From NCBI RefSeq assembly GCF_003334315.1, contig NZ_QOWR01000036.1: a stretch of DNA of 46,318 bases; one strand, 5' to 3'. Numbering within the stretch: the stretch's first letter is position 1; every line of letters begins with the position of its first letter. The notes below the pieces were generated by a model that saw only the letters and a program-made list of their open reading frames with translations, searched no databases and was not told the origin of the DNA. Both the position numbers and the translations under genes were made by a program. Below, piece by piece: positions 44,195-45,865 of the stretch. Source of the DNA: Escherichia coli (GTDB lineage Bacteria; Pseudomonadota; Gammaproteobacteria; Enterobacterales; Enterobacteriaceae).

Positions 44195-44910
44195 AATTCA
44201 CAGATGTTTTTTCTCATTCTGTGGTTTCCTTGGCGCTTTCTAGGTTTTTTCAGATAGTTACATTTTTTCAAAAGCATCCTGAGTTCGATCTTACTATCTA
44301 TCTGTGGCCTATTTCTGTCCCATATATGCCCCAAAAAACACCCCAACAGATAAGCAGTCTTTTCATGGTGTTACGCGTAAAAACAATAACGGCTTGAAAT
44401 TATTCAATACACTCTCGAAAGTGCATCAGCCAACCGCAGAACGTTATTGCATACAACGTTTCTGCGGCATATCACGAAACGATTACTTAATGACTGGGAC
44501 TTCAGACCACTCAATATCCGGTACAATTATGTATCAACGCAGTTTAACAACACCCTATATTTAATCCAGAGTGCGAGCAACGTTGTCCCTTTCTCTTTTG
44601 CACTCTTAAAATATACGATTACTTAAGTGAAGATGCTTGACGAATCGCCAAATAAAACATCTTCATCAGCATAAAAATCCATATATGATTGAAAATTTAG
44701 TCATTAATACCATTCATATCTGAATACTGACCTAATATGCTTACTAACCGTGAGAAATCTTTTTTTTCGACTTAATCACTCGAAATAAACTTTCACTCAA
44801 TTGAAAACAATTAGCTACAATTATCATTGCAATATCAAATCAAACATAACAACTTGCATAAATTCTCATGGGATACAGCATCAGTTGTGCCAAACACATA
44901 AGGAATTGAA

Positions 44911-45108
44911 ATGGACGGAGAAAGCTTTAACTTTGATGACAATGATATTGAATTTATTGCTTCAATGTATGCATCATGTAAATTATCAGGAAGCATCGCC
45001 CCCATAATGCATATAATGGTTAGCATTCCAAGAAATAAGAAAAAACAATTCTACGAACGAGTTGAGCATTATTGTAGTTTATATTCCAATAAAAACCCAC
45101 CTTCTTAA
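44911..45108 (+). CDS. hypothetical small protein, 65 aa
   Basis: ATG preceded by AAGGA at 7-nt spacing; acidic N-terminus MDGESFNFDDNDIEF; lies in an AT-rich block. Confidence 0.35.
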   Translation: MDGESFNFDDNDIEFIASMYASCKLSGSIAPIMHIMVSIPRNKKKQFYERVEHYCSLYSNKNPPS

Positions 45109-45559
45109 ATTCGCTGCATTCTAGTGGATTCCATTAAGAAAACAATGACATACACTCAAACACATCTTTTTTATCAACAGTGAATTTCAGTTCGGCCAGT
45201 TTTTACCAGCTATTATAAAAATAGCATCCATATAAAGTTTTTACCCCACAGGTACAGCTGGCCATTCGATAACCGCACTAAGGAAGTGCCAACACGATAT
45301 CAGCAAGACCCGATATTTCTTCCATGCCGCCAGCAACGATGTTAAGGTTAAATTAATTATAAAAAATATATTATAATTCCATCTTCGCATTAAATTTTAA
45401 CCTTTAATCTCCACACGGAACAAGTTGCATAGGTGACTATATTAGGAAAACTTATAACCACCAAAACATTTGCTTTGCAAACAAAAACAGTGACCATTGA
45501 CTCTAAGAAAATTCCGATCTATTGTTAGGATCATCAAAGTTACTTAACAGTATTCCGAA

Positions 45560-45661
45560 ATGAAAATACAAAGCAAGCTAATTGTCTTATTAAACATTAT
45601 CATTGCATTTATATTATTTGAGCTTTTAGCTCAAAAATTTGGTTTGAGTACATTATTTTAA
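45560..45661 (+). CDS. candidate small hydrophobic peptide, 33 aa
   Basis: Manual translation MKIQSKLIVLLNIIIAFILFELLAQKFGLSTLF*; single predicted transmembrane helix; weak ribosome-binding site. Confidence 0.2.
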   Translation: MKIQSKLIVLLNIIIAFILFELLAQKFGLSTLF

Positions 45662-45810
45662 AGCAAGATAAACAATATCGGGCACTCTAGTTTTTATAAT
45701 TAACAATTAAACGTCCATAAAATGTTATTTACTTTTGTTCGCTATTGTCATATCTTAATATAGTGGCTTACGCCACTCTACTTTCATCACATTTTGTACG
45801 TTTATGTACT

Positions 45811-45846
45811 CGCCATGAAGCTCTTTCATGGCGATTTTTTATTCTT
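45811..45846 (+). terminator. intrinsic terminator abutting the right IS1
   Basis: Stem cgccatga / tcatggcg with loop agctctt, followed by attttttatt; 20 bp before the IS1 end. Confidence 0.65.
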
Positions 45847-45865
45847 AATCCAAGAACATACTCCC

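Follow-up and report, generated by a model that had tools for sequence, protein, structure and literature searches.

Among the small RNAs (sRNAs) of Escherichia coli prophages, DicF belongs to Qin and IpeX to DLP12. AgvB/AsxR and the other EcOnc RNAs are Hfq-dependent sRNAs of enterohemorrhagic E. coli prophages (PMC4104026), and KilS, from the Rac prophage, derives from the 3' untranslated region (UTR) of kilR and has the yncL mRNA as a partner in RNA interaction by ligation and sequencing (PMC8175672). The YncL protein is induced by heat and by minimal medium, and its production causes sublethal depolarization, nucleoid condensation, and reduced viability (PMC12542507); it is also a substrate of RseP (PMC10470546). 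Phage genes may be carried as morons, each an autonomous unit of promoter, gene, and terminator, with bor and lom of lambda as examples (Juhala et al., 2000, cited in PMC4104026), and appY in DLP12 is cargo of a prophage end (PMC10057817). Here we analyze the block at positions 44195-45865 of a 46,318-nucleotide stretch of E. coli DNA (assembly GCF_003334315.1, contig NZ_QOWR01000036.1), referred to below as the window. The block ends in a conserved unit of ∼520 bp, the post-tfa cassette (45349..45865, plus strand), named for its position next to the tail fiber assembly gene tfa. We favor, with moderate confidence, the reading that the cassette, transcribed toward the late tail operon, is a unit of the moron type, which would encode a YncL-like protein and carry a conserved, terminating 3' end, the latter a probable Hfq-type RNA.

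Distribution of the cassette and coding evidence for ORF33

Megablast searches of 5426 complete E. coli genomes, which underlie all of the genome counts given here, found the cassette in 829 (820 full length), usually as a single copy (median, 1 place per genome). It resides in prophages at four chromosomal sites and in the cultured temperate phages mEp332, PhiR70_1, and ev099 (L003:1001-1753, L004:1017-1760, and L005:1330-2073, respectively, in our numbering of comparison sequences), where it lies between tfa and a gene for an AraC-family regulator. Every tfa-bearing copy examined has the cassette just distal to tfa and read convergently with it; directly distal to tfa, the cassette adjoins sitD in BH100 and zinT in D10, and in FCI51, at a trkG/Rac-type locus, it stands beside a tfa remnant only. 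In IMG/VR, the same 19 contigs were recovered whether the scan used a peptide pattern or either of two DNA patterns. The copies comprise 20 distinct sequences in four clades, at 100/99%, 95 to 96%, 92%, and 81% identity. Among the GTDB species representatives, a single contig contained a 21-mer from the conserved 3' end of the cassette (JAIJJM010000739.1, 1552 bp; L031:381-896) and was 95% identical to the E. coli cassette; it is binned in a metagenome-assembled genome labeled "Collinsella sp." but is almost certainly E. coli or phage DNA assigned to the wrong bin. The cassette family is narrow and confined to E. coli.

Within the cassette, the open reading frame (ORF) that we call ORF33 (45560..45661, plus strand) is an unannotated candidate gene for a 33-residue membrane protein with a single hydrophobic helix, MKIQSKLIVLLNIIIAFILFELLAQKFGLSTLF. 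The frame had been pointed out as a possible small-protein gene in an earlier note made from the sequence alone, and the comparative data bear this out. Each of the 20 distinct variants keeps ORF33 intact and at 33 codons. Measured against the window, the 81% clade shows 12 synonymous and 7 nonsynonymous differences, corresponding to proportions of changed sites (pS and pN) of 0.61 and 0.088 and a ratio of 0.14 (binomial P = 5e-5); the 92% clade differs by 3 or 4 synonymous changes and 1 nonsynonymous change. The 81% clade (FCI51) has lost 5 nt at the stop codon, and the deletion regenerates an in-frame TAA. Upstream lies a sigma-70 promoter-like site at 45497-45525 on the plus strand (TTGACT-17-TATTGT), with a predicted start at ∼45532 that would leave a 5' UTR of ∼28 nt. 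The −35 hexamer is invariant in the 20 variants, and the −10 hexamer has one change, to TATCGT, in the most diverged clade; we infer that the site functions as a sigma-70 promoter. A terminator-like hairpin within the coding region (45617-45635) was rejected as a structural element, as it is not conserved in FCI51 and no T run follows it.

A search of NCBIfam with ORF33 gave a single match, to YncL (NF000537; E value, 1.3e-5; 25 bits). YncL was likewise the sole family match for three ORF33 variants (E values, 1e-5 to 7e-5; 22 to 25 bits), K-12 YncL itself scoring 68.6. BLASTP aligned ORF33 with K-12 YncL at 39% identity over residues 1 to 28 (E value, 2e-7), ungapped from Met1. The Smith-Waterman score of the pair was 60, compared with 20 ± 4 for shuffled sequences, and none of 20,000 shuffles scored as high; the other small membrane protein and toxin sequences used for comparison scored ≤29. 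On these alignments ORF33 is a distant paralog of YncL, not an equivalog. A toxin-like activity is plausible, because its relative YncL depolarizes the membrane when overproduced. Taken together, the alignments and the substitution pattern indicate that ORF33 is very probably a genuine gene, coding for a single-pass membrane protein that resembles YncL.

Several observations weigh against that assignment. No Shine-Dalgarno motif is found within 15 nt of the ATG in any clade (ttccgaaATG in the window), and the match to YncL falls under the 35-bit equivalog cutoff of that family. RefSeq carries no annotation for ORF33, and ∼15 billion predicted proteins include only two calls of it. The cassette clades, all from E. 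coli, are of shallow diversity, and the selection tests therefore rest mainly on the one 81% clade. Two null searches have technical causes: phmmer of ORF33 against 1.84 billion representatives retrieved only ORF33 itself and one frameshifted variant, missing YncL because the query is too short, and tblastn against phages retrieved nothing, though mEp332, ev099, and PhiR70_1 encode ORF33 exactly. The latter null is an artifact, because the low-complexity filter masks the hydrophobic 33-mer; filtered searches will systematically miss similar small membrane ORFs.

The surroundings of the cassette vary. In mEp332, PhiR70_1, and ev099 the order is cassette, ∼900 bp of unannotated AT-rich DNA, the AraC-family regulator gene, insertion sequence (IS) transposase fragments, and int, a layout that recalls appY in DLP12; in K-12, appY adjoins tfaX, as the cassette adjoins the AraC-family gene in free phages. 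In BH100 and FCI51 (L007:1-2765 and L006:1-2694), the cassette or tfa remnant abuts the sitABCD iron/manganese transporter genes, and FCI51 also has a Bcr/CflA efflux gene at the prophage end; such ends border fitness loci. One further frame in the cassette, a 31-residue GTG-initiated ORF (45433-45528) listed as a hypothetical protein in PhiR70_1, was rejected, since FCI51 indels break it. No mention of the cassette or of the sequence at its conserved 3' end was found in the searchable literature.

The conserved 3' segment and what it might do

About 100 nt downstream of ORF33 lies an 87-nt segment (45760..45846, plus strand), referred to here as the island, which is a candidate 3'-end sRNA and the predicted terminator of the ORF33 transcript. 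It consists of stem-loop 1 (45762-45777, 6-bp stem), a single-stranded linker of ∼18 nt (45778-45795), the small stem-loop 2 (45796-45809, 4-bp stem), and an intrinsic terminator. The terminator, which the earlier note had placed at 45811..45846, consists of an 11-bp stem capped by a 3-nt loop (45810-45834) and a run of six U residues at 45835-45840. The minimum free energy of the island is −27.1 kcal/mol (z = −6.7). Compared with the 81% clade, positions 45760-45850 differ at 6 of 91 sites (6.6%) and the spacer between ORF33 and the island at 37 of 104 (36%; Fisher P = 6e-7); beyond the terminator, the same clade is ∼70% identical (∼30% divergence). Left spacers are of two types, as are right flanks, and in each of the three combinations observed the island hardly varies. 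The "structured RNA-like sequence" of the earlier note is to this extent upheld, as a conserved structured element 3' of ORF33.

The substitutions within the island change G-C to G-U or G-U to A-U pairs, or fall in loops, terminal pairs, and the tail; the linker has one variable position across the four clades. Invariant pairs make up 17 of the 21, 2 vary on one side with the pair preserved, and 3 terminal or closing pairs are broken in one or two variants. ORF33 and the island occur together in 19 of 19 IMG/VR contigs. In the O169:H41 strain 2014EL-1345-2 (L008:2900-3178), a clean 1.19-kb deletion (44571-45759) joins a tfa remnant (remnant 1; see below) to position 45760; it removes ORF33 together with the upstream frame ORF65 and stops 1 nt before the island, which is kept with its terminator. 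A 41-residue TTG-initiated ORF over the island was rejected, as it has no third-position bias and two variants carry a 1-nt T deletion; the island is noncoding.

Other data count against reading this conservation as constraint on an RNA. When the window is compared with the 92% clade, conservation of the island does not exceed that of the spacer, so that the case for constraint depends on the single most diverged clade. One IMG/VR contig (IMGVR_UViG_2690316068_000004; L021:1062-1780) is BH100-like up to ∼45833 and FCI51-like beyond, with a crossover inside or next to the island between two flank types of ∼70% identity; conservation of the island could partly reflect recombination. No compensatory changes and no covarying pair were found in the island. 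As no pair covaries, its structure is argued from thermodynamics and conservation; the covariation analysis is uninformative because the family is narrow and limited to E. coli.

These considerations bear on a first alternative, that the whole block is functionless, decaying debris, its conservation coming from recent spread and hitchhiking with a selected tfa/stf. About two-thirds of the block are demonstrably remnants, and it is AT-rich and ORF-poor; most cassette copies are at least 95% identical, ORF33 lacks a ribosome-binding site, the Prokaryotic Genome Annotation Pipeline (PGAP) annotates nothing in the cassette, and IS1 insertions and deletions occur in it. Decay would not, however, be expected to leave the pattern seen in the 81% clade, where synonymous sites of ORF33 approach saturation at a pN of 0.088, the frame is kept through the 5-nt deletion at the stop, and the island remains ∼93% identical between flanks of 60 to 70% identity. 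Homology to YncL is unexpected for random AT-rich sequence, and viable phages carry the cassette. We consider the debris explanation improbable for the block as a whole.

The question of what the island does is more finely balanced. It has the features expected of an sRNA, a terminator with a U tail preceded by a conserved single-stranded region. An internal promoter candidate, TTTACT-17-TATCTT, has a predicted start at ∼45763, exactly at the onset of conservation, and the T, A, and final T of its −10 hexamer are kept in all clades; against its use, it matches only 8 of 12 consensus positions. A trans-acting sRNA role for the island, argued by analogy, is possible, and we place it somewhat short of even chances. 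Neither the block nor the cassettes found in relatives contain a sequence that reached an Rfam gathering threshold. Identification of the island as MicC, MicF, or Esr41 was rejected, the scores of 15 to 23 bits (best, MicC at 23) reflecting generic terminator architecture. Predicted pairing of the island with 13 RNAs (ORF33, yncL, ORF65, ompC, ompF, ompA, ortT, sulA, MicF, and others, including neighboring mRNAs) was in no case better than that of shuffled seeds, which speaks against a role in trans among those partners. An sRNA that silences a porin receptor, encoded beside a tail fiber, found no support, because island pairing was no better than that of the shuffled seeds.

The alternative that bears most directly on the RNA is that the cassette codes for the YncL-like protein only, the 3' segment being a terminator and stabilizer that insulates tfa and has no role in trans. 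A canonical terminator stands exactly where convergent transcription must stop, 80 to 90 nt from the tfa stop codon; the 13 RNAs yielded no target and Rfam no relative; the internal promoter is weak; and the O169 strain keeps the island without an obvious promoter. Set against this, a terminator needs ∼35 nt, and the additional 50 nt (stem-loop 1 and the 32 nt of linker and stem-loop 2) vary as little as the terminator stem does, as is typical of the seed and Hfq-binding regions of sRNAs. We regard a function in termination alone as unlikely, and at the same time as a serious rival for the RNA part of our interpretation.

A third alternative follows the suggestion of the earlier note that a short hydrophobic peptide beside structured RNA-like sequence in a prophage is the usual setting of type I toxin-antitoxin modules: ORF33 would be a membrane-depolarizing toxin, repressed by base pairing with the island or with an antisense RNA. 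Its attractions are that ORF33 is a 33-residue single-helix hydrophobic peptide, that its homolog YncL depolarizes membranes and lowers viability when produced early (PMC12542507), that a structured, conserved RNA-like element lies 100 nt away, that the setting is a prophage and the K-12 Qin prophage carries hokD, and that the absent Shine-Dalgarno motif could mean tightly limited translation. The island, however, is read from the same strand as ORF33 and lies 3' of it, and the duplex of its single-stranded region with the ORF33 mRNA (−14.1 kcal/mol) was matched by 85 of 500 shuffled seeds. The minus strand has one weak promoter-like site, not conserved in FCI51, and no terminator. The predicted leader of ORF33 is short (∼28 nt), unlike the long structured leaders typical of type I toxin mRNAs, and the coding-region hairpin at 45617-45635 is not conserved. 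ORF33 without the island was never seen; the converse arrangement in O169 is contrary to the addiction logic of an antitoxin only if the island is harmless alone. Because no complementary RNA was found, the type I reading is unsupported, and we judge it very improbable.

We therefore return to the moron-type reading, with a YncL-like protein and a probable RNA, and outline how it might work. The sigma-70-like promoter at ∼45497-45525 would drive the cassette in the lysogen, and the small membrane protein would modulate membrane energetics or stress physiology. After the divergent spacer of ∼100 nt, the conserved 3' segment of ∼85 nt, ending in the intrinsic terminator, would end the transcript and so shield tfa/stf from antisense read-through. 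The same segment might yield a stable Hfq-type sRNA acting on a target in trans, made either from the weak internal promoter (start at ∼45763) or by processing. In its fullest form, this would make the cassette a two-product lysogenic-conversion unit of a phage-borne YncL paralog and a hitherto undescribed ∼85-nt Hfq-type sRNA, a tentative proposal that we think rather unlikely as a whole. Were it true, the paralog could tune membrane potential, for example in superinfection exclusion or in a tolerant, low-energy lysogen, and the sRNA from the 3' end would regulate a host or phage mRNA, the unit being present in ∼15% of E. coli genomes as well as in viable lambdoid phages.

Origin of the remainder of the block

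The block as a whole has a GC content of 33.8%, compared with 47.0% for the adjacent ydfJ' and 48.2% for the whole window, and its longest ORF is 86 residues, in keeping with its earlier description as AT-rich and without a long ORF. Every feature listed at that time lies where it was placed or at most 1 nt away, including ORF65 (44911..45108, plus strand) with AAGGA 7 nt 5' of its ATG, ORF33, and the terminator. On the left is ydfJ' (42911..44194, minus strand), a host major facilitator superfamily transporter gene whose 5' end was lost to prophage integration; that it is truncated, as had been said, agrees with relatives, in which PGAP marks the same 427-residue ORF as "missing N-terminus." On the right, the IS1 border is also confirmed: IS1 (insB side, minus strand) runs from 45866 to the end of the window at 46318, with an insB fragment at 45881-46258, and the window ends inside it. 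The insertion is 62 bp short of the position of the tfaQ stop codon in relatives, where the cassette borders an intact tfaQ; in the window, IS1 cuts it off. The exact junction of IS1 and block has no single contiguous match in the complete genomes; the nearest, in AH01, is in two pieces with ∼100 extra bp. The claim of several inverted repeats holds in part: repeats are present, but most are short, imperfect, chance-level pairs. The outstanding folds in the block are the terminator region (z = −6.7) and a 13-bp hairpin at 44436-44469 on the minus strand (z = −3.7), and promoter-like sites are rarer than in shuffled sequence (4 versus 8.5).

The whole block is found in 579 genomes and parts of it in 2825. 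IS1-free relatives have the identical block between N-terminally truncated ydfJ and tfaQ-stf-lom-J; from these flanks, the block is the attR-proximal, post-tail-fiber end of a lambdoid prophage in ydfJ, the integration site of Qin. The earlier note had proposed this setting, placing ydfK at the equivalent position in K-12 and seeing no such ORF here. K-12 does have ydfK there, with ynfT and pinQ; tblastn with YdfK and YnfT gave no match in 44195-45865, and the cargo is accordingly unlike that of K-12. The leftmost part, 44195..44467, is ∼86% identical to the K-12 Qin end and to the phages Tritos, HannyBb, mEp460_ev081, and PhiR42_1. In HannyBb the matching segment begins 47 bp past the 3' end of int, and because it adjoins int in a free phage, we assign it as the P arm of attP, here the P arm of attR.

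Two remnants of tfa follow, both on the minus strand. Remnant 1 (44492..44601) is a frameshifted C-terminal fragment, covering approximately residues 156 to 192, found by tblastn with five Tfa proteins as queries (E value, ∼1e-5, plus a second, frameshifted piece) and 81% identical in DNA to the 3' end of lambda tfa. The lambda match runs beyond the tfa stop codon, and the 13-bp hairpin (44436..44469), directly 3' of the remnant, also follows lambda tfa; by this comparison, it was acquired along with the 3' end of tfa and is, for the late operon, a weak structure resembling a terminator. Remnant 2 (45241..45342; tblastn E value, 1e-8) holds the last 34 codons of a tail fiber assembly gene including the stop, TSLLAAWKKYRVLL...IEWPAVPVG*. 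Between the two remnants is an insert (44602..45240, ∼30% GC) of unassigned origin that contains ORF65; it was found in E. coli only (591 genomes) and had no match in the phage collection. Two subthreshold matches to the Rfam family IS009 (RF02111), at 44525-44716 and 45280-45355, overlap tfa remnants 1 and 2. The IS009 model itself lies wholly inside the tfaQ coding sequence of K-12 and relatives, with 212 to 227 bits (L010:6345-6543 in K-12 tfaQ, L001:9773-9971, L003:3290-3488, and L007:3586-3784), so that the matches in the window are tfa pseudogene fragments; the family may describe coding sequence and not a small RNA.

The succession from tfa through the cassette, one tfa remnant, the insert, and the other tfa remnant to the att arm indicates that the block was assembled stepwise, by accretion of cargo through recombination at tfa 3' ends. 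The possibility, raised in the earlier note, of a decayed noncoding fragment of a known prophage applies to about two-thirds of the block, comprising the P arm, the insert, and both remnants of tfa, and does not extend to the cassette.

ORF65 has been the other candidate for the functional cargo of the block, as a small cytoplasmic protein with its own promoter and a strong ribosome-binding site. Besides AAGGA, it has a promoter-like site, TTCACT-18-TACAAT, at 44792-44821, and PGAP calls it as the hypothetical protein WP_001421370.1, in a cluster of 185 members on at least 1000 contigs. It is nonetheless an orphan: its relatives are from E. coli only and all at least 88% identical, and 6 of 13 protein clusters from the homology search are truncated or frameshifted, mostly at an A run. 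Neither Pfam, PHROG, nor PADLOC gave a match, and the sole NCBIfam match, to GlgS, is insignificant (E value, 0.037). Compared with the one usefully diverged copy, L034, ORF65 has 6 nonsynonymous and 3 synonymous differences (pN/pS, 0.43 on 9 changes), a C-terminal frameshift, and 5.1% divergence, against 2.8% in its flanks. It is also missing from the O169:H41 deletion variant. The pattern indicates that ORF65 is probably not a constrained gene, and that it is the block's functional cargo is distinctly improbable. A further block copy, in the draft contig JAGIEY010000138.1 (L035), is noisy: positions 45000-45547 are duplicated in tandem, and its many substitutions are clustered. This copy, which probably reflects an error of assembly or sequencing, was excluded from the selection tests.

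Comparison with known systems

The context and most of the content of the block, the att arm and tfa remnants, are ordinary; as judged from sequence comparison, what is new is a moron in which a phage carries a distant paralog of YncL together with a candidate prophage sRNA. Neither ORF33 nor an RNA from the island is annotated in any genome examined, and on this reading a conserved gene for a small membrane protein would have escaped PGAP in over 800 complete genomes of E. coli as well as in cultured phages. YncL is one of few small membrane proteins with a reported cellular effect (depolarization and nucleoid condensation), and a phage-borne paralog would offer a natural handle on YncL-type function, for example in phage exclusion or stress tolerance. 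The invariant ∼85-nt 3' segment is a cheaply testable sRNA candidate, and the assignment of the remainder to debris removes two false leads, the type I toxin-antitoxin module and ORF65 as a gene.

The Qin end of K-12 (ydfJ'-ynfT-ydfK-pinQ-tfaQ) shares with the block the integration site and a P arm of ∼260 bp at 86% identity, and it too has a gene for a small hydrophobic protein, the 37-residue YnfT. Past the P arm the cargo is unrelated: the block has no homolog of ynfT, ydfK, or pinQ and instead has tfa remnants, the orphan insert, and the YncL-like cassette. The sequence of YnfT (L010:4891-5004) is unrelated to that of ORF33; small membrane proteins may be recurring cargo at the Qin prophage end, and the cassette adds to the evidence that prophage ends collect both tiny membrane proteins and small RNAs.

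The type I systems Hok/Sok, Ldr/Rdl, Ibs/Sib, TisB/IstR, ShoB/OhsC, and Zor/Orz resemble the cassette in combining a short hydrophobic peptide with a structured RNA-like neighbor on a mobile element. The cassette differs in that no antisense or complementary RNA was found in it, in its short leader, and in its usual single copy, and the type I toxin sequences used for comparison show no similarity to ORF33, with Smith-Waterman scores of ≤29. The prophage Hfq sRNAs (DicF, IpeX, AgvB/AsxR, EcOnc, Esr41, and KilS) also share features with the cassette: like them, the candidate sRNA of the island is ∼85 nt long, begins with a stem-loop, continues in a U-rich single-stranded stretch, and closes with a U-tailed terminator. 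It is encoded in a lambdoid accessory region and is possibly derived from a 3' UTR, as KilS is. It has no sequence or covariance relation to them (best Rfam scores of 15 to 23 bits, against gathering thresholds of 90 to 102), and lies after tfa, not at the PR' moron site.

YncL (b4598), a 31-residue inner-membrane stress-response protein of K-12, is of the same size class as the ORF33 product and has the same plan of one hydrophobic helix with basic flanks; the two are collinear, with 11 of 28 residues identical (M1, S5, V9, L10, N12, A16, L19, F20, L22, F27, and G28). ORF33 is two residues longer and scores 22 to 25 bits against the family. It is prophage-borne, in the post-tfa cassette, whereas yncL is at the chromosomal patD-yncL-ortT locus; yncL has the Shine-Dalgarno sequence AAGGTGG, ORF33 has none, and the 3' regions differ. 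As a unit, the cassette differs from the lambdoid morons (lambda bor and lom) and from prophage-end cargo such as appY of DLP12 in the nature of what it carries, a 33-residue protein and a possible sRNA in place of a protein of conventional size, with expression in the lysogen only predicted. In other respects it resembles them: it is small, AT-rich, and self-contained, has a promoter-like site and its own terminator, lies beyond the tail fiber genes, and is mobile between phages and found at several att sites.

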